From NCBI GenBank assembly GCA_965655095.1, contig OZ296651.1, positions 64,046,001-64,110,000 on the forward strand: DNA of 64,000 bases, written 5' to 3'. The position numbers and the translations under genes are program-made. Origin of the DNA: Haplodiscus bocki (lineage: Eukaryota). The first letter of the stretch is position 1. Each line of letters begins with the position of its first letter. The notes under the pieces were generated by a model. The model worked only from the letters and a program-made list of their open reading frames with translations. It was not told the origin of the DNA and made no database searches. Of this stretch, positions 971 through 61,800 are shown piece after piece.

Positions 971-974
971 CAGT

Positions 975-2820: not shown

Positions 2821-2829
2821 TCATTGGGT

Positions 2830-20060: not shown

Positions 20061-20089
20061 AGATGCAGTCCCATAACTTTTCTATAGTT

Positions 20090-35297: not shown

Positions 35298-36252
35298 ACA
35301 AATTGTAAAGTTCACATTTCCGTTGTTTAATGAGTAAATCTTTCAACCATTGGAAGGCTGCAAAGTGCAGAATCTAAATTGATATGATTGAGAGATCAAC
35401 TTACTAGTATTAGACACCGTGAAAAGGAATTGTCTCAATTCGAATTTCTGGAACAACTTTGTGATGGACGTAACATTATTTCTAAAAGTGATAGAAGTGT
35501 CTAGCGTGTATAGGATCAAGCTTTAAATATCTCTCAAGACATTTGATGTGTAAATTTTATCTTTGATCTCAACTGACAAGTCAGAATGTGTTCAGAAGTT
35601 CCGCTTCGTCTCCGTGTGAATGTTTTCGGATACTGACGAAGTTTTTGGCCGCTTTCTCTGTGTTTTTAAATTTTCTTCTGATAGTTTTTCGAAGTTCAAA
35701 TTCTGAATTGCACTCATATGGGCTGAAATAGCAGTTCATTCGAAAGCACTTTTTCTATTTTTGCTAATCCTTTTTTCCTATGGCAAAAAGTGATTTTTTC
35801 TTGAACTTTTTCTTTGCCTTTATCTCTTCGTTTGGTACTTTGAGCTGTTGGAGCAGAATTGTTTAGAATTAAATTCGTTAATTTCACAAGTAAATTTTTC
35901 AAATATTATGAAAAGGACAAAACGCCTATAAACACTTTACTCCCTTACAAATTTCTCGATCTCAGTATAGTCTCCCGATACTGATGGAAAATAACAAAAA
36001 CGATCAAATAACACTCTCAAACGGACGGATCGGATTCTCTTCCCTTGACGTGGTTGATCGATATTAACCCAAAGACCAAAGACGTAGCCCTTAAAAGATG
36101 ACGAGCGCTATCATATCTTCTGATGATCAATACAACGACTTTTCTCTCACATTAAACAGTCGCAGTTAAATTAAACAGTCCCAGCTCAATCTAATGACGA
36201 ATTCATACAAATCTTCTATGGAACCGAAGATTCGATTCTTCAACAACCCTAT

Positions 36253-36625
36253 TCAATTAGATGTTGCATCTCTGCTGATGCCCGAATGAGTAAAAGTTCT
36301 GCCGATTTCTTTTCCATCCCCAGATCAACATGCCGAAAAGCAAAGCTCTTCATGGGACAAATTTTTCCTTTCCGGGACTCAACAGGAAAATGCTATATCT
36401 ACAACTTAGTGGCAGAATAGAGGTTTTTCGATAAACCCTATCTATCAACTTTAACCAGAACACTAGAAACAATGAGGATTTATGAAAGTATGAACGGTGT
36501 TTCTACTATTGCTATACCCACACTTGACTGTGGACTGGATCAAATGAACTGGCGAGAAGTGGTAAAGATACTACGTGATATCTTTGACTATGCCGACGTC
36601 CAAATTATTGTTTACACTCTTGATA
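36253..36625 (+). pseudogene. TARG1/OARD1 (Poa1p-like) macrodomain within gypsy pol
   Basis: SIRCCISADARMSK...YIYNLVAE*RFFDKPYLSTLTRTLETMR...NGVSTIAIPTLDCGLDQMNWREVVKILRDIF..IIVYTL follows the TARG1 pattern (HCIS.D..M; KPTY..L..SL; MPRIGCGLD.L.W; TVYTL). Confidence 0.85.
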
Positions 36626-36691
36626 AAAGTAAGTGGAGTCCACGCGATGTCCGCGAAAGGCGACGCTGAGTTCTAAGCCGATAATGAGATA

Positions 36692-37434
36692 TGTGTCGTG
36701 GCCCGATGAACCGGTTAAATCCGTGGAAATAGAGCTGTTAATTCCAAGTTTGAATTACCAACAAAGTTTATTCTAACAGAAATGGCTTGAATTCAGCAGA
36801 ATTATTAACAAATTAACACTTTGTCCGAACGTATTTCTTTAAACCGTCTGTTCGGTGTCGATGTAACAAGCCTCTATGTTTAGTTTTCTTAGTTTAGCTG
36901 GTTTCAATTTCATCCGCTAGAGGGCGTCTTTTCATGCTTTCGGAAGAAATTTGCATAATCGGCTCTGATTGGCCAAACAAACTTTCATATGCAAAAAGAA
37001 AAAAGAACCGGAGTGAAAAAGGTTCGGTCCGGTCGGGAAGCGATCGCCGGACCTTTCGCTTACAAGTCCTGGACGTATACCGTTGCGCCACCATTGCTAC
37101 GGTAACGCCGGTTACGAGTTCGCTACATAGACGCAGGCGATGGTTTAATCCGCGTGCGTGACCGTTTACTTGATTTAATTCGCGTACGCGACAAGAAGCC
37201 TGTTTAGGAAAATAAAATTACCTAAAAGATTTCCGGATCTCCTTCAATTGAGATTTTCCTTATGGCGACGCATTGTTTTCGTCCTCAATCCTGCAAGAGC
37301 TTGATTACGATCGATCGCCGGACCTTTCGTTTACGAGTCCCGGACGCATACCGTTGCGCCACCATTGCTACGGTAACGCCGGTTACGAGCTCGCTAACTA
37401 GACACACGCGACGGTTTAATTCGCGTACGCCACA
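36692..37434. mobile_element. Solo LTR inserted in the gypsy pol
   Basis: TGTG...CACA termini and a 5-bp TSD AGATA (36687-36691 and 37435-37439). Coding-like pol sequence resumes across it. Internal ~125-bp direct repeat (about 37040-37190 vs 37310-37434). Confidence 0.8.
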
Positions 37435-37439
37435 AGATA

Positions 37440-39000
37440 GACTGATACAGTGAAGAATTCTTCCTCGAAAATAGTGTGTTACAAACAGAATTCACTAAGA
37501 CTCTAAGTCCTGTTAACCGACATTTAATGAACAATTCCGAATATTTCGCGAGAAAGATCAAAAGAATCGACTCATTGAGTACTACCTACAATACCAGCCC
37601 AAGGAAGTTACGAACTACTTTGAAGAATTCGACTTCCAGTACTCAGACGAAGACATGATTCTCAACACAAAATCGATGTGAGCAAAACCGCTCAAAAGTT
37701 CCATGTAACAATGAAACCGAATGTTGAACTGAAAAGACAACGACCTTGCGAAGATCCCTTGCACGTAAATGAAAAATTGGAAAAACTAGCAACACTACTG
37801 AAGGACCCAGAGATTATTCGTGAAATGGGTGTCGACGACGACGAGATGGGTCAATATTTGTTAACCTCATCCTTCTATGCCTAGAAGTGATTATGTGAAA
37901 TTAGATATTGAAGCAATGTTTTCCAATTCTGTGACGAATCCAACTAACTACTCCTGGCCCTGGAACCAGTGCGAATGATTATGACCAAAGTAAACAGCAA
38001 GGTCTCCGTAAGCGACTTATTTTCAAGCGCATACCATCAGCTCCCGCTGAGCTCGGAGACAAAAATTAATCAGTTTTAATATTGGTGGAAAACAGTACAC
38101 CTACACTATTGGACTCTATGGTATGTGTGGACTTCAAACTTCTTCAGCCGACTAATGACAATACAGTTCGTTCCTCTCATTAAGAAGAAACAAGCAATCA
38201 CCTGTATTGTCGATAGAATGCAGTCGCAAAACAGAAACGAGATGTTTACAGTCATCATTGAATACTATACCCTTCTTCGGAAGGCGCGTCTCAAGCAGCT
38301 CCTAACAAAACATTCTGTTGTCGAAAGAAAATTATTTTTCTTGGTCACGTTTCATCTCTAGAAGTAATCCAACTCATCGCCAAACGAGTGAATGACTCGA
38401 CGGATCTCAAATCACCTGAAAGTAAACAGGATGTCATGATAATTCTGGCATGGCTTGGCTTCTATAGCTGTTACATCAAGAACCTCCATGTGGACATCAA
38501 CGTTTCTAGGATTTGATCAAGGAAATGACTCCTTTCCACTTAACATAGGAACACAAAAAACTCTTTCAATCGATTAAAGGACAGAATCAGTGAAGACGCG
38601 ATTCTTGCCGTGCCGTTTACCGACTATCCCTTTCACATTCATGTGGATTCATCGCATATTGGAACTGGCTGTATTTTGATTCAGCACTTTCTTGATTGAA
38701 AGCGAATAATTTCCTTCAACTCCAAAATTTTCGATAACGCTTAACCGAAAATTTCTACCTTCAATGGAAAACTTTGTGGAATTGTCTCCACCCTCCACAC
38801 CTCAGAACACTACATCATTAGCTCTTCTTTTCTGATTTAGCTATTTTATGATCATAAACCCATTCTCTATCTGTTGGGATGTAAAAGACAACTCACAATG
38901 GTTCTTCAGATACCAAGTAATTGTAGCGAAATTCCAAAATCTGAAGATAAGCTGGAACGCAGGATCAAATCTTGCCTTCCCGGAGATCCTGAGTCGAAAT
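37440..39000 (+). pseudogene. Gypsy reverse transcriptase + RNase H (frameshifted)
   Basis: FHVTMKPNVELKRQRP, NYSWP, SDL..AYHQLPL, YTYTIGLYG, decayed YIDD (TCIVD), FLGH. RNase H: PFHIHVDSSHIGTGCILIQ, ISFNSK, DHKPI. Confidence 0.85.
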
Positions 39001-39949
39001 GTAACAGTAGAAAACCAAAAACATCAGCTACAACGCAAGAAAATACCTAGAGACATAGACTGTAGAAGACCAAAAACACCAGCTACAACACATGAAAATA
39101 CCCGGAGACAGAGTTCTACGAAGAACATGGCTATCCAATGATTCATCCAATCCAACATCATGACAACCCTAACGACTTGTGCAATGACTTTCATCCAATT
39201 CATTGTCAACAAGGAAATGACAAAAAGGTTCCTCGGTTGCGCAATGATGGTTAGAACTTTACGTTGAATAGTCTCAGCCACGGGTTTCCAATAAGAACAA
39301 CACAATCCGCAGGCGACTGTTTTCGAATGGGCAGGACAATTAATCAATTCCTACGCCTCTGCCTACCTTCAACGCCGCCCTTAGGCTCAAAAGAAAGCTC
39401 TTAACCCACTTACAGTTCAATCAATTCGGTTAACACTGATGAAGACGATAACACACTGGACGAACTCCCTGATGCTGCCGATCCAACCATAGATGACGAC
39501 GAAGACAACCTGATATGCGCAATGAACTTAAATGCCGACAACTATCGAATTTGTTGAGCCAAAGCAACCTACCACGCTGCCCTGAGGAATCTGGATGCTT
39601 CCCGAGTTGAAAAGACGCTCACAGCCACGTAGGCTTCCCTCTTAGATACCAGAGCTTTAATTACGAAACTTTATGATGAAGCTAAAACAATTGATCTTGA
39701 TTTCTCCACGATCTTGGCTGAGCAAATTCAAGACCCAGTTCTTGGCATTGCTCGATCATGGCAACGGAAAGGAGCCTCACCCGATACAAAATCACCTGAG
39801 ATTAAGCAGTCGAAGGAACTCCTTCGATATTGCCAAGGGTTCGAGCGCCTTTTGATAGACGGACAAATGTTATGCTATAATGAACCTTCCGACAAACTGG
39901 AAGATGAGAACCTACGAATTGGTCTAACACTATCACTTTTCTTAGCCGA

Positions 39950-41060
39950 GTAGGTTTGGACACTATAATGGATTGGGTGAACACATGGGCGCTTCGTAAA
40001 GCTACAACAATGTGAAACGATTTTACTACTGGCCTGATATGTTTTACTGGATCTGTTCACACTGCTGATTTTCTTAATTGTCAGTTTAACAAACGAAAAC
40101 CTGAACACCGGAATGAAAGCCCATTGGAAGAATGGCAAAAACGACTGTTCCATTCTGCACGATCCACATCGATTGCAAAGGACCCCTTCATCCACCAAGT
40201 AATGGAAATTTTCCTTGTCTCTTGGTTGTTGATGCTTTTTTTCGCTTCTTAATGGTATACCCAGTTAGTATTACTGGTGCCCAACATGCAATCTCGGCTG
40301 TCCAGAAACGGATACTCTTTTGGAATCCCTCAGTCTATTGCACACGACCGAGTCACTGCGTTCAATACCGACTTCATCAATTGGACTAAAGAATTGGGAA
40401 TCACCTTACGACCCCGAACAGCACACTCGTCTTGAACTAATGCTGACATTGAGACACAGAATCAACACATCCTTCGCTTTTGGCAAAATGATGCTGGAAA
40501 CAAATGGTCTTCCCTGGCACCGCAATTGGCTTTTGCTCACAATACAAGTGTCAATTTCACTTTTGGAAAAACCCCCTGCGAGATAGTATTTGGTACAAAT
40601 CCTCAAATCCCGATGTCTTTGAAGCTTGGACTCTGCTGCAACAAACATTAACTCTGCTGTTCAGACTTCAGCAAGGACTTCCCACCTCACTCTCATAGGG
40701 AGAACAGCTTTAAAATTCAGTTACTGGACAACTTAGTGCGACCTCAACTTCCTCAATCTTTTCTGGAGGTCGAACGTGGCTTTAAACGAACCTACTCTGC
40801 TACTTTTGAACGATGCTTCGAGCAATCCGCTAGATCACACGCTTAGAGAAACCGATTCAAAATGAGACAACACCTCGACGTAGGCCAAAAAGGTTCTTTG
40901 CGACAATTACCGTCAAGATCTCCAATGACAAAAGCTCCAACAATGATGACTCGAACTATTCATAGCCACTAAATGTATCGCGAACACAACCTTTCAAATA
41001 CAAGATGACAATGATTCTACGACTACTAAGACTGTGTACCGTAATCACGTAGTCTAATCT
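39950..41060 (+). pseudogene. Gypsy integrase (frameshifted)
   Basis: HMG...FYYWPDM, PFCTIHIDCKGPL..LLVVDAFFRF, GIPQSIAHDR, LGITLRPRTAHSS*TNADIE, PCEIVFG, and a GPY-like tail. Confidence 0.9.
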
Positions 41061-44000
41061 AAGCATAAAGAACCAACTCTGCCTCCGATGATCGAAGAAT
41101 ATGTACCCACGGATAGACGCCATGAAAATTTCTGTGGGAGATTTATGGAACAACGAATTCAGAAGTTAAACAACCCCAAACAGCCTGGCGTCGAAGATTG
41201 CCTTCCATTTTCTATCGAGCTTTTACGTGCTGTTCCTGCTGCACTTCCGAGACGACAATTCAGCAATATTAGCCGTGATTCCAGAGTCAACTCTCTTCAA
41301 GCTCTTTCACCAGAAATGCCAGTAACGCCTGATAATGCGCATTCTCCTCAGCCTTATCTGATGCCATCAACTTCACGAATGTATCCTCCTAGCCTCAAAT
41401 CCACCTAACCAACATTCAACTCCAATTCAACAGTTTATCCACAATTGCCGGATAACCGGGAATAAGGAACCTAAAAACAACTGTTCCCAGCATGATCATC
41501 CTCACCCACATTCTGTGCTCTGAACTCTCACCCGACAAGGGTTTAAACTCTAAAACTTCACATTTTGCATCTATTTATCCCCTTTTGCTGATGTGTTTTG
41601 TATAATGCGGAGCTTACTAGGTTTATACTCTGCTTTCACTTTTTTTTGTTGCAGATCACCATGACCAAGTGTCACGAAATTTATCCCAACTGCATTTGGC
41701 ATATTCCACGTGAATGGAACAGCTTGAATTACTTACTATTCAGCACTTCTCACAAAAGTTTACTGGAGCTACTCTACCAACATAGTCCGTGTTTGCTTCA
41801 CTCCACTTTTCCTACAACTTCGAAAGTAGATGTCAGGAGAAAAGTCAACAAACGGGTTCATTTTGGGTGCAAGGCATGGCCGGTCTTTACCAAATTCCAT
41901 GCCACCTTTCCCTTATAGGTTCCGACCCTTTACTTGACTATTTACTTTCCCATCTTCCTACCCATTTTCCATCACACATTTTTCACTACATTGTTTTTGA
42001 AAATTCTAATAATGCGTCTGTCAATTCAATCGGCTCTTCTGTTTCTTCTTTCCATTCTGACCATTCAACCTATTTTTCTGGAACATTTCTATAATTTACT
42101 TTATTTTTGTGCAATCCCAAAATCTTACCACACGGACGGGCACAGCACAGTATTGAAGACCGGCGACGGCTAAATTGCCACCGACGGCCGGCAAGGGAGC
42201 TCGGAGGCTTTAAATCCTGATGAAACGACCGAAAATGGCAAGCAACTCCAGCTGCTCCCGTCTTTCCGCAATAGTCCAGGCGAGGAACAGCTGCAGACAC
42301 TGCAAATTTTTTAGCCGGTTGTACACTGGGACGAAGCCTTCATCCGGCAGATGATTCTTTCGATGAATCTCTTGTACTCTCATATCTTCTTCCTTTACTT
42401 AACTATTTGGCTCTTTTTCCTTTCGATGGATCCTTTGCATTCCTCCTATTCTTTCCGCCTATCCGAACCTGACGCCTACCCTACACACAGGACACGTATT
42501 TCAACCCCAAAAACGGTACTACGACAAGCGTAGTAGAATGAAGAAGACGGAAGCAAAAAAAAATCGAATTGACCAAATATTATTTTTTTAATCCCATTTT
42601 TCTTAAAATGTTTTTTATTTTAATTATTTCTTCCCTAAAGAAACCTAGTAATAGAATAGTAAAATAATTATATAGTACATACTTGAAACAGCAATGAAAG
42701 TACCTGACGACTTTGTTCTGAGGTTTGCTATGATTCGATGTATGTGAAATTTGACGGACAAATGAAATCATTCAAACGAATTGAACTGACATACGATTCA
42801 ACAACCATTCTGATTCATACTCGAACTGAAACAGGATTGGAAGAGGTGTACAAGCGCCCGTCCGCTTCGCCCTGTCTCTATCATTTGCGCAACCTCCTCT
42901 TCTTTAATATCTATATTCTGGGTGACATGGTTTGTGGAAACAAGGACCTTATCATCTAGATGACACTTATTCTTCTCAACATTGACGATCAACAACGAAT
43001 CATTGAGAGCCTAATCTTCAATAACACGACAAAGGAATGAAAATCATCACCAAATCGACCAGCGACGAACATATATCAACCTTTGTCTGCACCCTTGGAT
43101 CCTCTCACTACGCATTCATCGTAGCCCTCTTCAAAAATCCCCCACCAGTTGTTACAAATTGTCAGGATGGAAATTTCTAGATGACAACCATCTTCCTCGA
43201 AATAAATGACGAGTATTACATCAATTGCCTAACCTACAATCTTACAACTGATTGTTCAAAATTGACTCAGCAAATATCGAGACTTGGGGAATAAGTTGTC
43301 TTCCAGAATCATCGAAGTTTGCATTTATCGAGTCTTTTCAAGAACCCTGCAACCAATTTTATGAGCATAAACCGGACCATTTAAACAATATATACCCCAA
43401 CTACAACGTGAATGAACCCACTATAAATAACTCTGAATCGACCTGGTGATTACAAGACGCATCTGACTTACTTTCGCTGCTAGTGGACATCAATTTCACT
43501 CTGAGGAGAACACTTCATAATTACTATCTTTGGGATACGTTGATTGAAGTCCTCTACAAGTCAAACTTCGGGCTCTTGGGAATCTGCTCGCGATAATCTT
43601 TATTTCCATAACAGTCGGAGAGGAAGAGATCGCCAACCTCTTTGTGACCTTAAAGATCTCCAAAACATTGGACAAACGGGAAACCGAAGTTGGACGATCT
43701 TCTGGGTTATATGGACAAAGAACCTTAGGAGATTTAACGAGCTGTCACACATAACTATCCTGCACGCTTTTTTCTATCTTTTTGACATTTGAACTCAATA
43801 TATATCAAGTGCCTCTGGCAGCACCCTTCTACGAGCAACAAAATGGAGTTCACGAAAATTGAGTGGAGCGGAATATCTTACCCAATTGTAATAACAACCC
43901 ATAGCTTGAGACACTTTAACGAGGAACCTGGAGAATACCAATTAGGCCAAGGAGTGAAACGTTAACGATTCTCTCACCAGCCCTGCAAGATTTCACAAAA

Positions 44001-44169
44001 TTTCAGCACTTCCTAACACTCATCCTCTAACCAGAAACATAGTTAAAGAGCTCCTTAGACAATGTCAATCTTCGGTCTCTGATGGTAATCCCAGTGATTG
44101 AACATCCTCTAAAATATTCGGCGATGATGCTATTTCTTTTCCAAATCCTCGTGTTGTGTTCCGAGGTTG

Positions 44170-45485
44170 TTCACAGTTCAGCTCCAGACGCAGACCAGGT
44201 TGCAATGAACTCACTTTGATTGTGGCGCAATGACAGAAAACACCCTCCACGCTCTCAACCAGGTAAGACAATGCCACATTACACCTGAAGAACTGGAAAA
44301 CAATCAGACCCGAATCATACTCTACACTAAGTATTTCTGGAAACAATTGAATGCAACAAAATGTCGAATACAGCATCAGCGAGAAAAATCGCATTGTGGA
44401 CACAATGATCACAGTAGTATTGACCACACCATTGCTGGAACTACTGGCGACTTAGTGATATCACCCGAACAATGTCGCTCTTTCAAAAGGCAAGATTATC
44501 TGGCTGATCTCTTTTTGGGAGTTGAATACGCTACAGAAGATTCCGTCGTGATGGTGTAGATAGTCTCAAGAATGACGATAATTGAACCATTACGACAAAA
44601 GAGTTTGGTTTACACGTGATACATTCCTCCTTCGCATGCAAAGAGCGACTGCGAAGGTCAGATTGTCCCTCTCGGAAAGTTTTATCCGATTCAGCTCACG
44701 TATTGCCTTGTGCTTTGGAAGAGTTACGTTAAGTGACAGTTTCATTGGACCCCTATGCCTAAATATGGGACTACCCTGAGAACAGTGTTTTGTCAGTCCG
44801 TCCAACCGAAGACGTCAATATGGTGAAACAAGGAACAAAGTATTTTTTCAATAGTCGACCCGATCCAACAACTAAGTTTGTAATGGTAGTTAAAAATAAT
44901 CAACATAGACGTTGCGGAAAGCCAATGGTTATCTTCCCTACGACTTATGACTCAATCAATATAGCAATAATTGGCGAAGGCTTGGACTTGAGATCTGAGA
45001 AGAACCTTGGAAAGGAACGATTTGGTGCCATTCAACTTTTACAGTATTTTGCGCCCACCGACAACAATGGATTTGCTCAACTCTATGCCTTCGACCCAAA
45101 ACAAACGTCCCACTAAACGAGCGATGAGGATATGTATCTGAATATCGACTACGACATGCACATGGGAACAAAACTGGATTATATATTCTTTCAGAGTTCA
45201 AGACTACTTCAGGCTTCCGAAATTCCTTTTCTAAAAACCAATGCGAGCAGGAAGGAACCCAGATCCGCGCAATTCTGATCCTGTCTCTGCAAAACGCCTT
45301 TCCAGCAGGCTATATGCTTACCCAAAACCGCTCAATGTTCGAAACTAATGGCAGCCTAGCTTGGCTCTAACACTGCCCGTTGGTGGCTTCGCCATTTCAT
45401 ACCATGAACCAGTGTTACAGCCGAAAACCGATACGCTACGAAGGCCAAATCCAATTCGTTGGCCCTATCACGGGGCAAACTCACC
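44170..45485 (+). pseudogene. Envelope glycoprotein, class III fusogen-like (gB/chuvirus-G type), 3'-truncated
   Basis: HFDC..N..ALNQVRQC; NATKCRI..EKSHCGHNDHSS..ISPEQC; TKLDYIFF..NQCEQE..AGYML..GSLAWL*HCP..NQCY..PI..QFV.PIT. The Cys spacing recalls gB-type env of invertebrate LTR elements. Confidence 0.7.
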
Positions 45486-46121
45486 AAGTTGTGCACGGGT
45501 GAATAGGTGATTACGGGGAGGGAGTTGTTCGATACTGTAATCAATTGGTAAATTTTGATGTTTTCCTCACCGGGAACTTTCACCTGAAGATGCCAATTTA
45601 CTTGATATTGAGTTACTTACCTGTTGTTGATGACATACCCCTACGTGGCGGGCGTTGGGCTGTAGATGTCAACTATGTACAAGATTGTTGGAAAGAAGAG
45701 ACCATGCCAAATTTACATTTCCACAGAAAAAAACTATTGTATACTTATGGACAACTACTTACCATTATGTGAAATTATTTATTCTAATTGCAATCGGAGG
45801 CATGTTTTTTAGCGCAATAGCTAAAAAAACTCAGCTTAACTGTGCTTAATAGCAAAACAGTTTCACCAGAGATCAACACTTAGCTTAGCCCTATAACTCA
45901 CTGTTAGGTAAAAAAGGTTGACCGAAAAACTGTATTTTTTGTCGTATCTTTTTAGAGTTTGAATCATGGCAAGTAACTGAAGGCACAAGGACTACAAGTT
46001 TCTTGACCATGACAGCGCAAATAATTTTTGGAGTTTGAGTCAAGGCCAGTGGTGGAAGGCACACGGACTGCACATCACTGAACCTTGACAGCGCATGGCT
46101 AACTGAGTTATCTGGCTTTTC

Positions 46122-47121
46122 TCAATTGCTTGAAGATGGAGTTACAGCGAATTTCAGGCTAAGTTGTTCCTCACTAAGAGGCTTTTTGGGTGAAAGGGAG
46201 CAGACGTGGAACTGCTTGTGCTCCACTGTTGTCCCTTCTTCATCAGTGGCCGGCTTCAACCAAATAATTAATAAATAATTCGGAAGCCTTGATTCTCATT
46301 GATCGACTTCACAGACTCCTGAACTGTTTCATCTAATTGAAATCTGTCTAAAGCGGCGGAGTCAGGCTTTAAACATCTTGCCTGCTTGGAAACAAAGATA
46401 GCTGTCGATGCGTGAGAGAAGTGTTGAATTAGATCTCCGTTGTGGACGTCTCGAGTGAATTCATGGCAGCTAAACTCCTTAAGGAGCATCCATATCTTGT
46501 CTTGCGACGATTCCCTACAACCACACGGGTCATGGAAGGTTTGGCTGTCGCAAGCGTTCCCAGAGGAGCAGTTTTTGGCAATGACAGCCGAATCCACTGG
46601 CAGACTCTTGGTACAAAAACTGTAGAAGTGGAACTCAGTTGATGTTCCCTCAACATCATAGGGTGGCAAAGTGATAGATGTACTATGTTCCACAGGGACC
46701 AAGGGCTCTTTCGTCGAAATTAACGGCGTACCTCTTCAAGAAAGTTGGCCCTCGACATTCTCTTTAATTATGGCCACTTGAAGCCCAGGTCTCAAGGCTT
46801 CACTGTGGCGAAAGAGTCGTCGTGACTCTTCACTGTTTGGCGAAAACGTCACGACATTTGACGTGCCGGGCACTCTAAACACCACGAAACGGTGGTATTT
46901 TTCCACTTCTATTCTTTGAGTGGATCCGTACCCACGACTCGATTTTGCAAAAGTTAGTTTCTTTGACGGCTGACTTACGTATAACAGATTCGCCTGTACA
47001 AGATGCAAACGCGGCGTTTCGCTGTTATTCAACAGTTCGACTGAAATCGGCTGAAACTTGGATAATAAAGTCTGAGCTTGACTGAGGGATAGCGAGGCTT
47101 TAAGAAAACCGGGCTTTTTGT
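46122..47121 (-). pseudogene. Unassigned ~330-aa Cys-motif protein in unit 1 (other copies about 49254-50253, 52386-53385, 60616-61623)
   Basis: ORFs 46736-47032 and 46268-46702 are in frame across one TGA, then shift frame into WLKPATDEEG...HVCSL. Motif CSSGNACDSQ..DPCGC. A ttttttccag acceptor lies at 47122. Confidence 0.6.
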
Positions 47122-48033
47122 CTGGAAAAAATCATAAGCAATCAAAACCGACTCGAAATTCACGTCGTATCTGCGAAGGCTCAAAACAGTTCCTCCATAT
47201 TTTCAACTACTTTCTTAGCAACCATTTTCATTAGTACTTAAAAGCGCCGAATATTTATAAAGAAGCACATTTTTATTTCGTAGACATTCACAATTCTATA
47301 CACAACTTACCCATTGTCTCCGATTGCTTGTTAAAATTTTCATAAGTCAGGTTTATTTACAAATATTAACAGTTTGTACAGTTAAAGGATTATGGGAGAA
47401 AGTTTGTCAATGTTTCGTGATGAAAAAATGGGTAATATTAGCATAGATTTCGAATGCACACAAAAACACCGAAAACTTTACTTCTTTCAACAAAAACCGG
47501 ACCCTCAGTTTTGGAGAGTTTTTTTATTTTGTGTATTTTCGTTGTTTTTGGTTTTTCGTTTTTTTTTAATTGTTCTTTGTGTGTTTTTTTGGGGGAGGGG
47601 GGTTTTTTCTCGGGTTTATGTATTTTTGTTATTTTCCAATTTTTTGTTTGAGGCAGGTTGTTTTGAGCACAGCTAATTTTGAAGAAGGCGAGATGAACTC
47701 AAGAAGTGGAAATGGGAAGAAGGACGAATCGCTTCCCCAAGTTAAGCTGGCAATCCTGTTGAACAGGCCGGGACTCCTTTTGTAAGCTTCCTTGTTCTCC
47801 TGCAGCCCGGAGAGACCTGTTGTAACAAGAATTAAGGAAACACAAGTAGCAAACAAAATGGAAAGAGGCGGTCAGTTTAAGCCACAAGTGGCTTAAACTG
47901 ACGAAGCAGCGGAACGAAGCAGAAAAAGGAAGATGTTTCAGATTTTGCCGAATTATCGCACAATTTTGCCTACAGTTTGTTTTAAGAGATCACTTGTTTG
48001 ATGAGCACTATCGTTAATTTTAAAGGAGGCGTT

Positions 48034-48561
48034 TTAGAGATGTAAGTATTTAAAATTGTCTTCCAAAACTCGATTGTTTTGGACATCCAAATCACAAATG
48101 AATTGTCTCGGTCGGTCCCCAGGTTTTCTTGATGTTCCCAATGGCAACTTCTTTTTGTCTTCTTTTCTCTTTCGAACTAAAATTACAACAAAACGGCAAG
48201 GATACTTCTTTTCCAGATCTTTCAATGAAATTTTAACTTGATCACGAGACATCACTGGCAAACTTTCATTTTCTAAGTGCGGCGGCAACGTTTACGAGTT
48301 CATTATGGTGTTATGAAAAATTATCACTGTGTTAGGATTGAAACTTGAAGCATCATTGAATAACTTATCTGCATTTTTTTCTCTGTTAGGATGATTCAAC
48401 TTCGCTCCTTCTTTGGCAAACAGTTTGAATTGCACGTTTCCTTGCATTTGAGGACCATAATTCTTGTTGTTGCATTTCCCATTGCAAGTACAAATAATCA
48501 AGGGCTGCCTCTCAAAAGAGACCAGATTGCTTGCACCCACAATTGTAATTCTCGTTGCCCT
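48034..48561 (-). pseudogene. SGNH/GDSL-hydrolase-like gene in unit 1 (other copies 51166-51693, 62535-63062)
   Basis: ORFs 48292-48540 and 48034-48288 are in frame across one TAA. RITIVGASNL (block I-like), EGAKL (block II-like), VIIFHNTIMNS (block III-like), YLHL (block V-like). Confidence 0.45.
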
Positions 48562-51500
48562 TTACTGAACTGAAAGAATGATTACAGGCTAAATATCTTG
48601 GAAGACAATACCGTTGTTAAATCAGAGTGTACCTCACACTACCAGCTGTAGGAATGTTTTGAAGGTTGGAAAGAATTAAACGCACTCCCATTAATGCTGA
48701 GGTCAAAAACCAAAATTTTAATTTGACCGATCAGATGGTTTCTAAATACAGCGGTTGAATTGAACGAAAATAATATCAGGCCTCCTGAGTACAGCAAAAA
48801 CAATCTTATTGAAGAGTTACTCAATTAAAAAGTTTTGAGCGTTTTTTGAAACATCTGAATTAAGACAAGTTTTTGATTACAACGATTCAAAAATTAACTT
48901 CGCCTGGGCAATTTTCTGTTAAAAGTATTCAGCGGTTTATAAAAAATTTGAATTAGGACATATTTATCATTACAACTAATACAAAGAACTTCCTAGTAGG
49001 CAAAAATGGATTGAAAACAACAATGGTGCATTAGTATAAAGCACAAACAAAAATGAAAGCTACCTCTAAAACCTAAACCTACAAATTCCATGGAAAATAG
49101 TAAATTTGAAAATTCTACTGTTGAAGTTTAAAAGCGTGGAAAGCACAAGGACTACACACGCAAATATAAAAGTTTCAATTGTTGTGGAAGGCACAAGGCC
49201 TAAACATCACTGAACCTTGACAGCGCATGGCTAACTGAGTTATCTGGTTTTTCTCAATTGCTTGAAGATGGAGTTACAGCGAATTTCAGGCTAAGTTGTT
49301 CCTCACTAAGAGGCTTTTTGGGTGAAAGGGAGCAGACGTGGACCTGCTTGTGCTCCACGGTTGTCCCTTCTTCATCAGTGGCCGGCTTCAACCAAATAAT
49401 TAATAAATAATTCGGAAGCCTTGATTCTCTTTGATCGACTTCACTGACTCCTGAACTGTTTCATCTAATTGAAATCTGTCTAAAGCGGCGGAGTCAGGCT
49501 TTAAACATCTTGCCTGCTTGGAAACAAAGATATCTGTCGATGCGTTAGAGAAGTCTTGAATTAGATCTCCGTTGTGGACGTCTCGATTGAATTCATGACA
49601 GCTAAACTCCACAAGGAGCATCCATATTTTGTCTTGCGACAATTCCCTACAACCACACGGGTCATGGAAGGTTTGGCTGTCGCAAACGTTCCCAGAACAG
49701 CAGTTTTTGGCAATGACAGCCGAATCCACTGGCAGACTCTTGGTGCGAAAACTGTAGAAGTGGAACTCAGTTGATGTTCCCTCAACATCATAGGGTGGCA
49801 AAGTGATAGATGTACTATGTTCCACAGGGACCAATGGCTCTTTCGTCGAAATTAACGGCGTACCCCTTCAAGAAAGTTGGCCCTCGACATTCTTTTTAAT
49901 TATGGCCACTTGAAGTCCAGGTCTCAAGGCTTCACTGTGGCGAAAGAGTCGTCGTGACTCTTCACTGTTTGGCGAAAACGTCACGACATTTGACGTGCCG
50001 GGCACTCTAAACACCACGAAACGGTGGTATTTTTCCACTTCTATTCTTTGAGTGGATCCGTACCCACGACTCGATTTTGCAAAAGTTAGTTTCTTTGACG
50101 GCTGACTTACGTATAACAGATTCGCCTGTACAAGATGCAAACGCGGCGTTTCGCTGTTATTCAACAGTTCGACTGAAATCGGCTGAAACTTGGATAATAA
50201 AGTCTGAGCTTGACTGAGGGATAGCGAGGCTTTAAGAAAACCGGGCTTTTTGTCTGGAAAAAATCATAAGCAATCAAAACCGACTCGAAATTCACGTCGT
50301 ATCTGCGAAGGCTCAAAACAGTTCCTCCATATTTTCAACTACTTTCATAACAACCATTTTCATTAGTACTTAAAAGCGCCGAATATTTATAAAGAAGCAC
50401 ATTTTTATTTCGTAGACATTCACAATTCTATACACAACTTACCCATTGTCTCCGATTGCTTGTTAAAATTTTCATAAGTCAAGTTTATTTACAAATATTA
50501 ACAGTTTGTACAGTTAAAGGATTATGGGAGAAAGTTTGTCAATGTTTCGTGATGAAAAAATGGGTAATATTAGCATAGATTTCGAATGCACACAAAAACA
50601 CCGAAAACTTTACTTCTTTCAACAAAAACCGGACCCTCAGTTTTGGAGAGTTTTTTTATTTTGTGTATTTTCGTTGTTTTTGGTTTTTCGTTTTTTTTTA
50701 ATTGTTCTTTGTGTGTTTTTTTGGGGGAGGGGGGTTTTTTCTCGGGTTTATGTATTTTTGTTATTTTCCAATTTTTTGTTTGAGGCAGGTTGTTTTGAGC
50801 ACAGCTAATTTTGAAGAAGGCGAGATGAACTCAAGAAGTGGAAATGGGAAGAAGGACGAATCGCTTCCCCAAGTTAAGCTGGCAATCCTGTTGAACAGGC
50901 CGGGACTCCTTTTGTAAGCTTCCTTGTTCTCCTGCAGCCCAGAGAGACCTGTTGTAACAAGAATTAAGGAAACACAAGTAGCAAACAAAATGGAAAGAGG
51001 CGGTCAGTTTAAGCCACAAGTGGCTTAAACTGACGAAGCAGCGGAACGAAGCAGAAAAAGAAAGATGTTTCAGATTTTGCCGAATTATCGCACAATTTTG
51101 CCTACAGTTTGTTTTAAGAGATCACTTGTTTGATGAGCACTATCGTTAATTTTAAAGGAGGCGTTTTAGAGATGTAAGTATTTAAAATTGTCTTCCAAAA
51201 CTCGATTGTTTTGGACATCCAAATCACAAATGAATTGTCTCGGTCGGTCCCCAGGTTTTCTTGATGTTCCCAATGGCAACTTCTTTTTGTCTTCTTTTCT
51301 CTTTCGAACTAAAATTACAACAAAACGGCAAGGATACTTCTTTTCCAGATCTTTCAATGAAATTTTAACTTGATCACGAGACATCACTGGCAAACTTTCA
51401 TTTTCTAAGTGCGGCGGCAACGTTTACGAGTTCATCATGGTGTTATGAAAAATTATCACTGTGTTAGGATTGAAACTTGAAGCATCATTGAATAACTTAT

Positions 51501-55811: not shown

Positions 55812-58800
55812 GAAATGCCAGTAACGCCTGATAATGCGCATTCTCCTCAGCCTTATCTGATGCCATCAACATCACGAATGTATCCTCCTAGCCTCAAATC
55901 CACCTAGCCAACATTTAACTCCAATTCAACAGTTTATCCACAATTGCCGGATAACCGGGAATAAGGAACCTAAAAACAACTGTTCCCAGCATGATCATCC
56001 TCACCCACATTCTGTGCTCTGAACTCTCACCCGACAAGGGTTTAAACTCTAAAACTTCACATTTTGCATCTATTTATCCCCTTTTGCTGATGTGTTTTGT
56101 ATAATGCGGAGCTTACTAGGTTTATACTCTGCTTTCACTTTTTTTTGTTGCAGATCACCATGACCAAGTGTCACGAAATTTATCCCAACTGCATTTGGCA
56201 TATTCCACGTGAATGGAACAGCTTGAATTACTTACTATTCAGCACTTCTCACAAAAGTTTACTGGAGCTACTCTACCAACATAGTCCGTGTTTGCTTCAC
56301 TCCACTTTTCCTACAACTTCGAAAGTAGATGTCAGGAGAAAAGTCAACAAACGGGTTCATTTTGGGTGCAAGGCATGGCCGGTCTTTACCAAATTCCATG
56401 CCACCTTTCCCTTATAGGTTCCGACCCTTTACTTGACTATTTACTTTCCCATCTTCCTACCCATTTTCCATCACACATTTTTCACTACATTGTTTTTGAA
56501 AATTCTAATAATGCGTCTCAATTCAATCGGCTCTTCTGTTTCTTCTTTCCATTCTGACCATTCAACCTATTTTTCTGGAACATTTCTATAATTTACTTTA
56601 TTTTTGTGCAATCCCAAAATCTTACCACACGGACGGGCACAGCACAGTATTGAAGACCGGCGACGGCTAAATTGCCACCGACGGCCGGCAAGGGAGCTCG
56701 GAGGCTTTAAATCCTGATGAAACGACCGAAAATGGCAAGCAACTCCAGCTGCTCCCGTCTTTCCGCAATAGTCCAGGCGAGGAACAGCTGCAGACACTGC
56801 AAATTTTTTAGCCGGTTGTACACTGGGACGAAGCCTTCATCCGGCAGATGATTCTTTCGATGAATCTCTTGTACTCTCATATCTTCTTCCTTTACTTAAC
56901 TATTTGGCTCTTTTTCCTTTCGATGGATCCTTTGCATTCCTCCTATTCTTTCCGCCTATCCGAACCTGACGCCTACCCTACACACAGGACACGTATTTCA
57001 ACCCCAAAAACGGTACTACGACAAGCGTAGTAGAATGAAGAAGACGGAAGCAAAAAAAAATCGAATTGACCAAATATTATTTTTTTAATCCCATTTTTCT
57101 TAAAATGTTTTTTATTTTAATTATTTCTTCCCTAAAGAAACCTAGTAATAGAATAGTAAAATAATTATATAGTACATACTTGAAACAGCAATGAAAGTAC
57201 CTGACGACTTTGTTCTGAGGTTTGCTATGATTCGATGTATGTGAAATTTGACGGACAAATGAAATCATTCAAACGAATTGAACTGACATACGATTCAACA
57301 ACCATTCTGATTCATACTCGAACTGAAACAGGATTGGAAGAGGTGTACAAGCGCCCGTCCGCTTCGCCCTGTCTCTATCATTTGCGCAACCTCCTCTTCT
57401 TTAATATCTATATTCTGGGTGACATGGTTTGTGGAAACAAGGACCTTATCATCTAGATGACACTTATTCTTCTCAACATTGACGATCAACAACGAATCAT
57501 TGAGAGCCTAATCTTCAATAACACGACAAAGGAATGAAAATCATCACCAAATCGACCAGCGACGAACATATATCAACCTTTGTCTGCACCCTTGGATCCT
57601 CTCACTACGCATTCATCGTAGCCCTCTTCAAAAATCCCCCACCAGTTACAAATTGTCAGGATGGAAATTTCTAGATGACAACCATCTTCCTCGAAATAAA
57701 TGACGAGTATTACATCAATTGCCTAACCTACAATCTTACAACTGATTGTTCAAAATTGACTCAGCAAATATCGAGACTTGGGGAATAAGTTGTCTTCCAG
57801 AATCATCGAAGTTTGCATTTATCGAGTCTTTTCAAGAACCCTGCAACCAATTTTATGAGCATAAACCGGACCATTTAAACAATATATACCCCAACTACAA
57901 CGTGAATGAACCCACTATAAATAACTCTGAATCGACCTGGTGATTACAAGACGCATCTGACTTACTTTCGCTGCTAGTGGACATCAATTTCACTCTGAGG
58001 AGAACACTTCATAATTACTATCTTTGGGATACGTTGATTGAAGTCCTTTACAAGTCAAACTTCGGGCTCTTGGGAATCTGCTCGCGATAATCCTTATTTC
58101 CATAACAGTCGGAGAGGAAGAGATCGCCAACCTCTTTGTGACCTTAAAGATCTCCAAAACATTGGACAAACGGGAAACCGAAGTTGGACGATCTTCTGGG
58201 TTATATGGACAAAGAACCTTAGGAGATTTAACGAGCTGTCACACATAACTATCCTGCACGCTTTTTTCTATCTTTTTGACATTTGAACTCAATATATATC
58301 AAGTGCCTCTGGCAGCACCCTTCTACTAGCAACAAAATGGAGTTCACGAAAATTGAGTGGAGCGGAATATCTTACCCAATTGTAATAACAACCCATAGCT
58401 TGAGACACTTTAACGAGGAACCTGGAGAATACCAATTAGGCCAAGGAGTGAAACGTTAACGATTCTCTCACCAGCCCTGCAAGATTTCACAAAATTTCAG
58501 CACTTCCTAACACTCATCCTCTAACCAGAAACATAGTTAAAGAGCTCCTTAGACAATGTCAATCTTCGGTCTCTGATGGTAATCCCAGTGATTGAACATC
58601 CTCTAAAATATTCGGCGATGATGCTATTTCTTTTCCAAATCCTCGTGTTGTGTTCCGAGGTTGTTCACAGTTCAGCTCCAGACGCAGACCAGGTTGCAAT
58701 GAACTCACTTTGATTGTGGCGCAATGACAGAAAACACCCTCCACGCTCTCAACCAGGTAAGACAATGCCACATTACACCTGAAGAACTGGAAAACAATCA

Positions 58801-61800
58801 GACCCGAATCATACTCTACACTAAGTATTTCTGGAAACAATTGAATGCAACAAAATGTCGAATACAGCATCAGCGAGAAAAATCGCATTGTGGACACAAT
58901 GATCACAGTAGTATTGACCACACCATTGCTGGAACTACTGGCGACTTAGTGATATCACCCGAACAATGTCGCTCTTTCAAAAGGCAAGATTATCTGGCTG
59001 ATCTCTTTTTGGGAGTTGAATACGCTACAGAAGATTCCGTCGTGATGGTGTAGATAGTCTCAAGAATGACGATAATTGAACCATTACGACAAAAGAGTTT
59101 GGTTTACACGTGATACATTCCTCCTTCGCATGCAAAGAGCGACTGCGAAGGTCAGATTGTCCCTCTCGGAAAGTTTTATCCGATTCAGCTCACGTATTGC
59201 CTTGTGCTTTGGAAGAGTTACGTTAAGTGACAGTTTCATTGGACCCCTATGCCTAAATATGGGACTACCCTGAGAACAGTGTTTTGTCAGTCCGTCCAAC
59301 CGAAGACGTCAATATGGTGAAACAAGGAACAAAGTATTTTTTCAATAGTCGACCCGATCCAACAACTAAGTTTGTAATGGTAGTTAAAAATAATCAACAT
59401 AGACGTTGCGGAAAGCCAATGGATATCTTCCCTACGACTTATGACTCAATCAATATAGCAATAATTGGCGAAGGCTTGGACTTGAGATCTGAGAAGAACC
59501 TTGGAAAGGAACGATTTGGTGCCATTCAATTTTTACAGTATTTTGCGCCCACCGACAACAATGGATTTGCTCAACTCTATGCCTTCGACCCAAAACAAAC
59601 GTCCCACTAAACGAGCGATGAGGATATGTATCTGAATATCGACTACGACATGCACATGGGAACAAAACTGGATTATATATTCTTTCAGAGTTCAAGACTA
59701 CTTCAGGCTTCCGAAATTCCTTTTCTAAAAACCAATGCGAGCAGGAAGGAACCCAGATCCGCGCAATTCTGATCCTGTCTCTGCAAAACGCCTTTCCAGC
59801 AGGCTATATGCTTACCCAAAACCGCTCAATGTTCGAAACTAATGGCAGCCTAGCTTGGCTCTAACACTGCCCGTTGGTGGCTTCGCCATTTCATACCATG
59901 AACCAGTGTTACAGCCGAAAACCGATACGCTACGAAGGCCAAATCCAATTCGTTGGCCCTATCACGGGGCAAACTCACCAAGTTGTGCACGGGTGAATAG
60001 GTGATTACGGGGAGGGAGTTGTTCGATACTGTAATCAATTGGTAAATTTTGATGTTTTCCTCACCGGGAACTTTCACCTGAAGATGCCAATTTACTTGAT
60101 ATTGAGTTACTTACCTGTTGTTGATGACATACCCCTACGTGGCGGGCGTTGGGCTGTAGATGTCAACTATGTACAAGATTGTTGGAAAGAAGAGACCATG
60201 CCAAATTTACATTTCCACAGAAAAAAACTATTGTATACTTATGGACAACTACTTACCATTATGTGAAATTATTTATTCTAATTGCAATCGGAGGCATGTT
60301 TTTTAGCGCAATAGTTAAAAAAACTCAGCTTAACTGTGCTTAATAGCAAAACAGTTTCACCAGAGATCAACACTTAGCTTAGCCCTATAACTCACTGTTA
60401 GGTAAAAAAGGTTGACCGAAAAACTGTATTTTTTGTCGTATCTTTTTAGAGTTTGAATCATGGCAAGTAACTGAAGGCACAAGGACTACAAGTTTCTTGA
60501 CCATGACAGCGCAAATAATTTTTGGAGTTTGAGTCAAGGCCAGTGTTGGAAGGCACACGGACTGCACATCACTGAACCTTGACAGCGCATGGCTAACTGA
60601 GTTATCTGGCTTTTCTCAATTGCTTGAAGATGGAGTTACAGCGAATTTCAGGCTAAGTTGTTCCTCACTAAGAGGCTTTTTGGGTGAAAGGGAGCAGACG
60701 TGGAACTGCTTGTGCTCCACTGTTGTCCCTTCTTCATCAGTGGCCGGCTTCAACCAAATAATTAATAAATAATTCGGAAGCCTTGATTCTCATTGATCGA
60801 CTTCACTGACTCCTGAACTGTTTCATCTAATTGAAATCTGTCTAAAGCGGCGGAGTCAGGCTTTAAACATCTTGCCTGCTTGGAAACAAAGATAGCTGTC
60901 GATGCGTGAGAGAAGTGTTGAATTAGATCTCCGTTGTGGACGTCTCGAGTGAATTCATGGCAGCTAAACTCCTTAAGGAGCATCCATATCTTGTCTTGCG
61001 ACGATTCCCTACAACCACACGGGTCATGGAAGGTTTGGCTGTCGCAAGCGTTCCCAGAGGAGCAGTTTTTGGCAATGACAGCCGAATCCACTGGCAGACT
61101 CTTGGTACAAAAACTGTAGAAGTGGAACTCAGTTGATGTTCCCTCAACATCATAGGGTGGCAAAGTGATAGATGTACTATGTTCCACAGGGACCAAGGGC
61201 TCTTTCGTCGAAATTAACGGCGTACCTCTTCAAGAATTCAAGAAAGTTGGCCCTCGACATTCTCTTTAATTATGGCCACTTGAAGCCCAGGTCTCAAGGC
61301 TTCACTGTGGCGAAAGAGTCGTCGTGACTCTTCACTGTTTGGCGAAAACGTCACGACATTTGACGTGCCGGGCACTCTAAACACCACGAAACGGTGGTAT
61401 TTTTCCACTTCTATTCTTTGAGTGGATCCGTACCCACGACTCGATTTTGCAAAAGTTAGTTTCTTTGACGGCTGACTTACGTATAACAGATTCGCCTGTA
61501 CAAGATGCAAACGCGGCGTTTCGCTGTTATTCAACAGTTCGACTGAAATCGGCTGAAACTTGGATAATAAAGTCTGAGCTTGACTGAGGGATAGCGAGGC
61601 TTTAAGAAAACCGGGCTTTTTGTCTGGAAAAAATCATAAGCAATCAAAACCGACTCGAAATTCACGTCGTATCTGCGAAGGCTCAAAACAGTTCCTCCAT
61701 ATTTTCAACTACTTTCTTAGCAACCATTTTCATTAGTACTTAAAAGCGCCGAATATTTATAAAGAAGCACATTTTTATTTCGTAGACATTCACAATTCTA

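Follow-up and report, generated by a model that had tools for sequence, protein, structure and literature searches.

An abundant ~20-kb Ty3/gypsy element family of Haplodiscus bocki with a predicted class III envelope, a TARG1-like macrodomain within Pol and candidate counter-defence cargo

The 64,000-nt stretch of Haplodiscus bocki contig OZ296651.1 analysed here (the window) contains, at positions 35955–45485, an old, broken and truncated member of a Ty3/gypsy LTR family. The family is very abundant, with thousands of candidate loci in the 1.5-Gb genome, and has been recently amplified; its complete copies carry about ten extra genes, of which two resemble means of countering host defences. 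We consider it probable that the family consists of enveloped, complex-retrovirus-like elements of ∼20 kb equipped with counter-defence cargo, and that the window harbours a dead, truncated copy of one of them.

The initial annotation had recognised a macrodomain, reverse transcriptase (RT), RNase H, a spacer, integrase (IN), further ORFs and an env in this region, and all of these were located as claimed, on the plus strand (Table 1). The 'A/C-rich' composition ascribed to the ORF remnants is real but modest (A 0.30–0.32 and C 0.23–0.24 versus 0.285 and 0.197, respectively, in the flank). Frames of the window were translated with X at stop codons and searched against Pfam, which resulted in hits to RNase H (PF17919, E = 2e-14) and, within env, to Monjiviricetes_fusion (E = 3e-7; 1.5e-9 for 44209–44556). 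The Zn domain of the integrase fell under the cut-off (E = 0.016), and the macrodomain was weak (E = 0.2), yet 73% identical to that of the relatives; no Pfam match to RT was obtained in these frames, and tblastn matched the window RT to that of a relative (53%, E = 5e-61). Stops or frame breaks are found in almost every domain. The window copy is missing gag, protease (PR), both LTRs, the uORF, the last third of env (the match stops at residue 474 of 731) and two post-env ORFs; lost at its 3' end are the membrane anchor of env, the Met-less ORF, the TRAF-C ORF and the 3' LTR. Because the copy lacks them, the TRAF-C ORF, the Met-less ORF and the uORF could not be seen in the initial annotation. 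The solo LTR nested between macrodomain and RT is missing in all ten relatives compared; genome copies of its family are 90–95% identical, many of them paired ∼8.9 kb apart. The window gave no match in Rfam.

Table 1. Features of the truncated element copy and of its local duplication in the window.
Feature	Position	Strand	Basis
Last part of the conserved PR–macrodomain interval of pol (~100 aa); copy truncated here at its 5' side	35955..36216	+	relatives
TARG1/OARD1-like macrodomain within pol; one stop, without catalytic-lysine equivalent	36217..36624	+	73% to relatives
Solo LTR foreign to the element, from an unrelated family; TG...CA, target duplication of 5 bp	36692..37434	.	genome copies, junctions
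Reverse transcriptase and RNase H, with stops and frameshifts	37660..38949	+	Pfam, tblastn
~280-aa conserved spacer, RNase H to integrase; no Pfam match	39010..39893	+	comparison with relatives
Integrase: Zn domain, core, SH3-like C-terminal domain	39952..41550	+	Pfam, relatives
orfA, 140-aa accessory ORF after conserved splice-acceptor-like site; frameshifted in window	41661..42079	+	relatives
Variable region; site of the antisense ORF of relatives	42080..42700	-	relatives
b1, b2, b3: three paralogous 70–75-aa ORFs with stop-to-start joints; broken in window	42738..43411	+	relatives
b4 (~127 aa) and overlapping b5; broken in window; no family match	43412..44083	+	relatives
env, predicted class III (gB/chuvirus-G-like), residues ~3–474 of 731; broken, 3'-truncated	44088..45485	+	Pfam, relatives
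3' half repeated by a local duplication, from the integrase tail to env	55812..59979	+	99.6% identity

Fifteen relatives on eight large contigs were fetched from the genome, ten chosen by env and five by the TRAF ORF. Copies were chosen by best score, which biases the set towards young, complete ones, and they represent three subfamilies; counts over copies are not independent. Full relatives are 19–20 kb long (19.3–20.3 kb) and bounded by LTRs of 2.1–2.5 kb, between which lie the uORF, gag, pol, small ORFs, env, the Met-less ORF and the TRAF-C ORF, in that order, with ∼3.3 kb of accessory ORFs separating pol from env. The LTR pairs are 98–100% identical, and 4-bp target site duplications were found in nine of the ten copies with both ends fetched, the tenth being too decayed. 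Young copies start with TA, not TG, at the 5' end; the primer-binding site starts with TGG and a G-rich, polypurine-like tract precedes the 3' LTR, while the one exact pattern tried for the priming tRNA gave no match. The suggestion that intact copies may exist elsewhere in the genome was borne out: young copies are abundant, and the frames are open in 85 of 86 TRAF and 147 of 150 macrodomain matches.

Pfam analysis of a natural copy placed Retrotrans_gag upstream of a pol of the order PR-RT-RNase H-IN; gag and pol frames differ in most copies. The integrase of a relative matched PF17921, PF00665, PF24626 and PF22938, and among PDB chains the RT–RNase H region of a relative was closest to Ty3 (E = 4e-33), followed by foamy virus (E = 4e-22) and MLV (E = 1e-15). 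Judged by these sequence comparisons, pol is that of a Ty3/gypsy element and not of a member of the Retroviridae. In the relatives, the macrodomain is inserted between PR and RT, and the spacer between RNase H and IN. Their macrodomain is related to human TARG1/OARD1 (C6orf130; E = 3e-22), and equivalents of the TARG1 catalytic residues Lys84 and Asp125 (PMC9411070) are kept in 14 of 14 copies of subfamilies A and B. Literature searches found neither a TARG1-like domain within a gypsy Pol nor the present cargo layout, and the best 120 homologues listed for macro, orfA and TRAF were only close relatives. The segment between PR and the macrodomain resembled a dUTPase by eye, an identity for which neither Pfam nor PDB gave a match. 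Between subfamilies, dN/dS is 0.04 for this segment, 0.06 for the macrodomain and 0.09 for the RNase H–integrase spacer. Gag-Pol would be made via a –1 frameshift, and the TARG1-like domain embedded in Pol would be packaged alongside RT, where it may strip host ADP-ribose marks off viral protein or nucleic acid.

The env of the relatives is full-length, with an N-terminal helix, an ordered ectodomain and C-terminal membrane-type helices in the structural model. It matches PF24664 (E = 3e-29), whereas a profile search against PDB sequences yielded 0 matches. The monomer model reached a pLDDT of 78 with an alignment versus 32 from a single sequence. A gB-type, class III fold had been proposed for env at the outset, and the model, built for the env of a natural copy rather than for a consensus, does fold as class III: all 38 PDB rows listed were herpes gB (best HSV gB, E = 4e-13), and the model also matched a chu-like G (E = 8e-32). 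Over the whole chain, the comparison to gB gave Z = 12.1 with 432 aligned residues and a poor superposition (TM ∼0.26, rmsd ∼16–16.9 Å), and domain IV gave Z = 9.6 with an rmsd of 3.5 Å over 164 residues. The modelled env is therefore classified as a predicted class III fusogen akin to herpes gB and chuvirus-like G. The context of distant env relatives yielded nothing in viral or metagenome contigs. The protein is strongly constrained (pN 0.14 vs pS 0.75, with dS saturated), and its pS, higher than that of pol (∼0.5), indicates a deeper synonymous divergence, which suggests env swapping between subfamilies.

Such an env would carry particles between cells, most likely from soma to germ line. 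A less probable alternative, although one to be taken seriously, is that the same element moves only intracellularly, its env and cargo aiding assembly, trafficking or host-cell survival and its macrodomain aiding replication or integration repair. The infectivity of env is a prediction from sequence and model, TARG1 acts in DNA repair (PMC4695847), and the cargo of the planarian element Burro has been read as interfering with apoptosis and ubiquitination (PMC6431247), all of which would suit a strictly intracellular element. The same could be said of the disordered env loop, in which no furin-type motif was seen by eye, but gB-type env does not always retain this site (PMC13524379). Retention of a full-length, strongly constrained env with membrane-type helices and its suggested swapping between subfamilies argue instead for enveloped particles that pass between cells.

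Among the accessory ORFs, orfA is ∼140 aa long in the majority of the 120 listed clusters, down to 68% identity. It gave a weak SH2-like lead (Atlas score 0.78, low recognition), with SH2 recognised by Pfam in 0 of 30 homologues and no match in PDB. Paralogy of the uORF and orfA is unproven (score ∼11 bits versus control maxima of 9.5–10.3); that of b4 and b5 was dropped, its high score being ascribed to a mislabelled frameshifted ORF. An antisense ORF of 155–209 aa is found in 13 of the 15 relatives and had no tblastn match in the window copy. The last ORF (477 aa) encodes a MATH domain (PF21355, E = 1.5e-17; TRAF4, E = 2e-12) and matched 24 TRAF chains in PDB, with E values of 2e-13 to 6e-9 to TRAF-family C-terminal domains. 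Its 250-aa N-terminal part is of low complexity, and no RING or zf-TRAF was matched in it by Pfam at E 0.1. The host genome contains a zf-TRAF gene, and no TRAF-C exon was found 30 kb downstream or 10 kb upstream of the zf-TRAF match. The RING-less TRAF-C protein might act as a decoy, dampening NF-kB or cell-death signalling through host TRAFs. The Met-less ORF following env is Arg-rich; an export role for its product is a guess from a motif.

Nearly all cargo ORFs are under purifying selection, with dN/dS of 0.05–0.34 compared to 0.80 for an overlapping control frame, the 45 pairs constituting one comparison between two subfamilies. The ratios are 0.09 for the uORF, 0.13 for b1, 0.17 for b3, 0.15 for b4, 0.33 for b5, 0.23 for the Met-less ORF and 0.07 for the MATH domain of the TRAF ORF; orfA has a pN of 0.135 versus a pS of 0.739. 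Divergence at synonymous sites (dS) between subfamilies is ∼0.3–0.9 or more, and reaches saturation in env, in orfA and in the antisense ORF. These values make it improbable that the extra ORFs are mere passengers, frames captured or arisen by chance and still open only through the youth of the copies. Any frame stays open in a young copy, the small ORFs are all without a match in Pfam or PDB (b4 likewise without a usable one in the Atlas) and b2 is absent in 5 of 5 subfamily-B copies; the control frame, however, has accumulated 20 stops in subfamily B, and orfA keeps its length across most of the listed clusters, so that the passenger explanation is largely refuted. Selection of this kind means that the cargo helps the element and does not show immunity as its target.

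All 15 copies have an acceptor-like site ahead of orfA and another ahead of the Met-less ORF, compared with a background of 9.7%, while under a strict rule such a site precedes env in 0 of 15 and b1 in 6 of 15 copies; no conserved splice donor was found in the 15 copies. A stop abutting the start codon was observed for b2 (10/10), b3 (15/15) and TRAF (14/14) against a background of 17%. The splice-acceptor-like sites and stop–start joints suggest a mode of expression resembling that of complex retroviruses, in which the small ORFs, env and TRAF-C would be expressed from spliced subgenomic RNAs combined with stop–start reinitiation. GT..AG ends were present at 0 of the 15 joints listed for the 3' half of a relative (335 more being unlisted), the sources being four runs of contigs with DNA-like depth, which say nothing about splicing. 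Expression of the Met-less ORF by readthrough from env was rejected because the two frames differ in subfamily B. A pentamer known from the calicivirus TURBS lies upstream of b5 (14/15), env (12/15) and TRAF (14/14), partly within coding frames, and carries no evidential weight.

Linkage of macrodomain, pol and env between paired LTRs, which the initial annotation could only surmise, was confirmed by colinearity in 10 of 10 env-chosen and 5 of 5 TRAF-chosen copies. A macrodomain match lies 7–14 kb upstream of at least 55 of the 86 TRAF matches, the spacing being 10.4–10.6 kb in 54 of the 55 linked cases. It is true that a solo LTR is nested in the window copy, which lies in a tandemly duplicated block, but a chance adjacency or nesting, at a single locus, of pol with a fragment of an endogenous chuvirus-like glycoprotein and with remnants of host genes is refuted by the order and spacing shared by all 15 copies and by paired LTRs with target duplications, and is left with a vanishingly small probability.

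The complex invertebrate retrovirus lineage initially proposed stands as regards linked, selected accessory ORFs, but the element is of Ty3/gypsy rather than Retroviridae affiliation. More tentatively, and with the odds rather against it, a complex retrovirus might have arisen independently within Ty3/gypsy, in the form of an invertebrate element that is infectious and still spreading. Its envelope would be of class III, and its virions would bring along a TARG1-type enzyme that erases ADP-ribosylation; the TRAF protein would act as a decoy, and a regulator comparable to Rev or CERV would be made by splicing. An antisense gene and a cassette of tiny proteins that arose by duplication, one of them perhaps mimicking SH2, would complete the set, with expression from polycistronic spliced RNAs. 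If true, the host would combat retroelements through PARP and TRAF pathways; a TARG1-class hydrolase domain fused into Pol may in itself point to ADP-ribosylation as a host anti-retrotransposon defence. The range of env-carrying gypsy elements, with its simple three-ORF forms, is extended to a design of 20 kb that has some ten selected accessory ORFs, and the TRAF-C and macro ORFs that the element carries, in their thousands, might be mistaken in this genome for expanded host gene families.

Gypsy elements with a gB-type env have already been published. The 'ancient errantiviruses' (Chary and Hayashi, eLife 2026, PMC13524379) share with the present element the gag-pol-env order, a Ty3/gypsy pol, an HSV-gB/chuvirus-like env, recent multicopy amplification and an invertebrate-type host, and the element contains what defines an errantivirus there, gag-pol-env in one element with an F- or gB-type env. 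It adds accessory ORFs between pol and env, two post-env ORFs, a Pol macrodomain and a length of 19–20 kb; the main text of that study does not mention macro, TRAF, MATH, dUTPase or accessory. Its main screen used a POL-ENV gap of ≤1 kb and 10-kb regions outside insects (wider for some phyla), and screens with such a gap limit would tend to overlook the present layout. Macrodomains on retroelements are known from teleost epsilon-like ERVs (Basta et al. 2009, cited in PMC4977317), which are Retroviridae and in which macro is described as additional ORFs, whereas the present domain is TARG1-class and forms part of a Ty3/gypsy Pol, in frame after PR and before RT. It shares with human TARG1/OARD1 the sequence match and the catalytic dyad, and is element-borne; likewise, the TRAF ORF shares the C-terminal domain of TRAF-family proteins without their RING and zinc fingers. 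Cer1 of C. elegans, an LTR retrotransposon whose regulatory protein CERV is made from a spliced mRNA (PMC10309623), may serve by analogy as a model for the Met-less, Arg-rich ORF. The planarian giant gypsy Burro/GYPSM1 (PMC6431247) has in common with our element a giant size, thousands of copies, env homology, a MATH_TRAF_C cargo domain, which in one species forms an ORF of its own, and an extra domain between PR and RT. Burro exceeds 30 kb, and its env, described as gypsy-Env/F-like, is placed in frame after gag and before pol; it also carries BIR, BCL2 and ankyrin, with no macrodomain named in the section considered. In the present element of 19.3–20.3 kb, env follows pol as a separate ORF of predicted class III, and the TRAF-C ORF comes last.

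The element copy at 35955-45485 (plus strand) of the window, which is G000:C4:64046001-64110000 of the 1.5-Gb genome, is a broken remnant. When plus-strand frames of the window were translated with X at stops and scanned against Pfam, matches were obtained for RNase H (E 2e-14), the integrase Zn domain (E 0.016), Monjiviricetes_fusion (E 3e-7; 1.5e-9 for 44209-44556 alone) and, weakly, Macro (E 0.2). Tblastn with ORFs of natural relatives recovered, colinear on the plus strand as the initial annotation had it, macrodomain, RT and RNase H, then a spacer of 280 aa, the integrase, six small ORFs and env (residues 3-474). Most of these ORFs carry stops or frame breaks, and gag, protease, LTRs and everything 3' of mid-env are missing. 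The solo LTR of a second family (Table) is missing from 10/10 relatives; its genome copies are often paired, ~8.9 kb apart. Judged by LTR spacing, that family comprises ~9.6-kb elements (130 candidates), and the solo LTR holds an internal 118-nt repeat. A separate fragment at 4043-4530 (minus strand) is 65-67% identical to the integrase-side pol region of the element family.

Coordinates of features of the window copy and its surroundings
Feature	Position	Strand	Remarks
Macrodomain	window 36217-36624	+	tblastn with relatives' ORF, 73%
Solo LTR, second LTR family	window 36692-37434		5-bp target duplication
Repeated block (element 3' half and array units), first of three copies	window 41313-49499		~99% identity among copies
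Repeated block, second copy	window 55812-64000		
Repeated block, third copy	G000:C4 ~64113200 onward		

Since the 3' half of the window copy recurs at 99.6% identity within the window and once more beyond it, local duplication has amplified this dead copy. Positions 46049-64000 form a tandem array whose 3.13-kb units are 97-100% identical and each contain a 32-nt palindrome; the array runs at least 20 kb past the window. One unit, read in six frames, had no Pfam match, and the window had none in Rfam. Degenerate repeats of two families, spaced ~160-370 and ~180 nt, occupy 7922-8859, 14172-14231 and 20089-21671.

Fifteen relatives were fetched: the 10 best non-local env matches (nine of subfamily A, one nearer the window copy) and, as subfamily B, five of the six best TRAF matches, a short-contig one being skipped. 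All 15 are colinear, so that the proposed linkage of macrodomain, pol and env holds. The layout of the relatives is 5' LTR, 7-codon mini-ORF, 113-aa uORF, gag, pol, orfA, antisense ORF, b1, b2, b3, b4, b5, env, 206-207-aa ORF, TRAF-C ORF and 3' LTR. For at least 55 of 86 TRAF matches, a macro match (out of the 150 listed) lies on the same strand 7-14 kb upstream, the spacing being 10.4-10.6 kb in 54 of the 55. First-look candidates, whose totals are not copy numbers, amounted to 2051 for a 2-kb env query (the 40 scored were mostly ~75% identical), 5192 for TRAF and 6153 for macro; 85/86 and 147/150 of the scored TRAF and macro matches lack stops. Young copies with open frames are therefore abundant, in line with the intact copies suspected elsewhere in the genome.

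Both ends were fetched for 10 copies. Nine are 19.3-20.3 kb long. In these, the 2.1-2.5-kb LTRs share 98-100% identity, the target duplication (read by eye) is 4 bp, the PBS starts TGG, and the 3' LTR is preceded by a G-rich tract. The tenth copy has decayed (LTR identity 75-91%). The near-identical LTRs indicate that the family transposed recently, the window copy being old. Variable numbers of a 59-nt tandem repeat in the LTRs (e.g. loci L047 and L048) reduce LTR-LTR identity in some copies. Young copies begin TA, not TG.

Gag (~480 aa) and pol lie in different, overlapping frames in most copies, and the overlap contains a heptamer which we take to be of the slippery-site type. Pol runs from PR through a conserved 100-aa segment and the macrodomain to RT, RNase H, the spacer and IN, which has an SH3-like tail. 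OrfA has 140 aa, b1, b2 and b3 70-75 aa each (b2 is missing in 5/5 subfamily B copies), env ~720 aa and the last ORF 450-500 aa, ending in a TRAF-C domain. Among PDB chains RT-RH is closest to Ty3 (E 4e-33 versus 4e-22 for foamy virus), and the element is almost certainly an env-carrying Ty3/gypsy LTR retrotransposon. At G000:C6:49739644-49745550 (minus strand) three macro matches spaced 2,739 bases in a single 3,672-aa open frame are an internal tandem triplication in pol. At locus L081 (G000:C8:58433001-58443000), ~3.1 kb of the minus strand (634-3738) hold uORF and gag together with a remnant of b4 and a diverged TRAF-C (42%); neither pol nor env was matched in that interval. This is possibly a short non-autonomous derivative keeping gag and TRAF.

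Selection acts on the cargo. Pairwise dN/dS between A and B (Nei-Gojobori, 9 x 5 pairs, effectively a single comparison) was 0.03 for gag, PR, RT, RH and IN, 0.04 for the PR-macro segment, 0.06 for macro, 0.09 for spacer and uORF, 0.13 for b1, 0.15 for b4, 0.17 for b3, 0.33 for b5 and 0.23 for the largely Met-less 206-207-aa ORF; in the TRAF-C ORF it fell from 0.34 (N-terminal part) through 0.16 (putative coiled coil) to 0.07 (MATH). An overlapping control frame gave 0.80, with 20 stops in B. Synonymous sites of env and orfA are saturated (pN 0.14, pS 0.74-0.75). The descent of pS from ~0.74 there to ~0.5 in pol and 0.23 in b4-b5 suggests either that subfamilies have exchanged modules or that overlaps impose constraints. 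The ORFs b1, b2 and b3 are paralogs: b2-b3 scored 38 bits and b1-b3 17 bits, against a control maximum of 10.6. Between orfA and b1, 13/15 copies have an antisense ORF that starts with ATG and is 155-209 aa long; on the sense strand there, no ATG frame exceeds 122 aa. None of the small ORFs matched in Pfam or PDB; orfA gave a weak SH2-like Atlas lead (0.78), with an SH2 Pfam match in 0/30 homologs.

Env of a natural copy matches PF24664 (E 3e-29), as do 23/23 long relatives scanned. Its single-sequence fold had pLDDT 32; with an alignment of 58 of the 150 listed relatives, pLDDT rose to 78 (pTM 0.60). The class III fold proposed for env is upheld by this model: Foldseek against PDB gave herpes gB in all of the 38 rows listed (best E 4e-13, TM only ~0.26), and against BFVD chu-like and other negative-strand-virus glycoproteins (E 1e-33 to 1e-28). 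VIA aligned 432 residues with gB (Z 12.1, rmsd 16.9); against domain IV of gB by itself, 164 residues were aligned with Z 9.6 and rmsd 3.5; the large whole-chain rmsd would fit a different domain arrangement.

The macrodomain is closest to human TARG1/C6orf130 (E 3e-22), other macrodomains being far weaker (E 2e-4). Equivalents of Lys84 and Asp125, described as the catalytic dyad of TARG1 (PMC9411070), are kept in 14/14 A and B copies. The last ORF contains a MATH domain (E 1.5e-17), matches 24 TRAF chains and, in a natural copy, has no RING or zinc-finger match in Pfam; 474 database proteins match it, the best 120 of them at 66-94%. The host genome has at least one zf-TRAF gene, an exon of which lies at G000:C8:58452801-58452968 (minus strand; locus L079). 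Only one of 35 candidates scored, so canonical host TRAF genes may be few beside the TRAF-C ORFs borne by elements, which number in the thousands.

Upstream of both orfA and the 207-aa ORF, 15/15 copies have a pyrimidine tract with YAG (background 9.7% of 1683 ATGs; b1 6/15 and env 0/15 by the same rule); no conserved splice donor was found in the relatives' sequences. Lacking Met in 13/15 copies, the 207-aa ORF should be a spliced exon; its 8-9 Arg/Lys within 20 residues (12/15 copies) recall Rev-type proteins and Cer1 CERV (PMC10309623). The upstream stop adjoins the next start at b2 (10/10) and b3 (15/15) and overlaps the TRAF start in 14/14, the stop codon differing there between A and B (background 17%). 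In caliciviruses, influenza B and the retrotransposon SART1, termination-reinitiation is driven by joints of this kind (PMC10275272). Judging from sequence, these acceptor-like sites and joints would be expression signals.

The family has the replication anatomy of an LTR retrotransposon, has amplified recently and encodes a class III env. Frameshifted Gag-Pol would bring a TARG1-type eraser into the particle, the RING-less TRAF-C protein might compete with host TRAFs, accessory proteins could be made from spliced polycistronic RNAs, and env may mediate transfer from cell to cell. The mechanism as a whole, from anatomy, amplification, env and selected cargo through to these four steps, we regard as somewhat favoured.

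The gB-type env is not new, being published as widespread in Ty3/gypsy (PMC13524379), in keeping with the earlier remark that class III envs occur in some invertebrate elements. The main screen of that study limited the pol-env gap to 1 kb outside insects. A term search of its main text returned nothing for macro, TRAF, MATH, dUTPase or accessory, and the macro/TRAF matches displayed from its seven supplements proved to be either species names or runs of letters within sequences. In the literature outside most subscription papers and Repbase, we found nothing closer for a macrodomain/TARG1 in gypsy or LTR retrotransposons than the macro-domain ORFs carried by fish epsilon-like ERVs (PMC4977317), and no closer precedent for a captured TRAF than Burro elements, which combine MATH_TRAF_C, a dUTPase-like domain and env, but in a different layout (PMC6431247).
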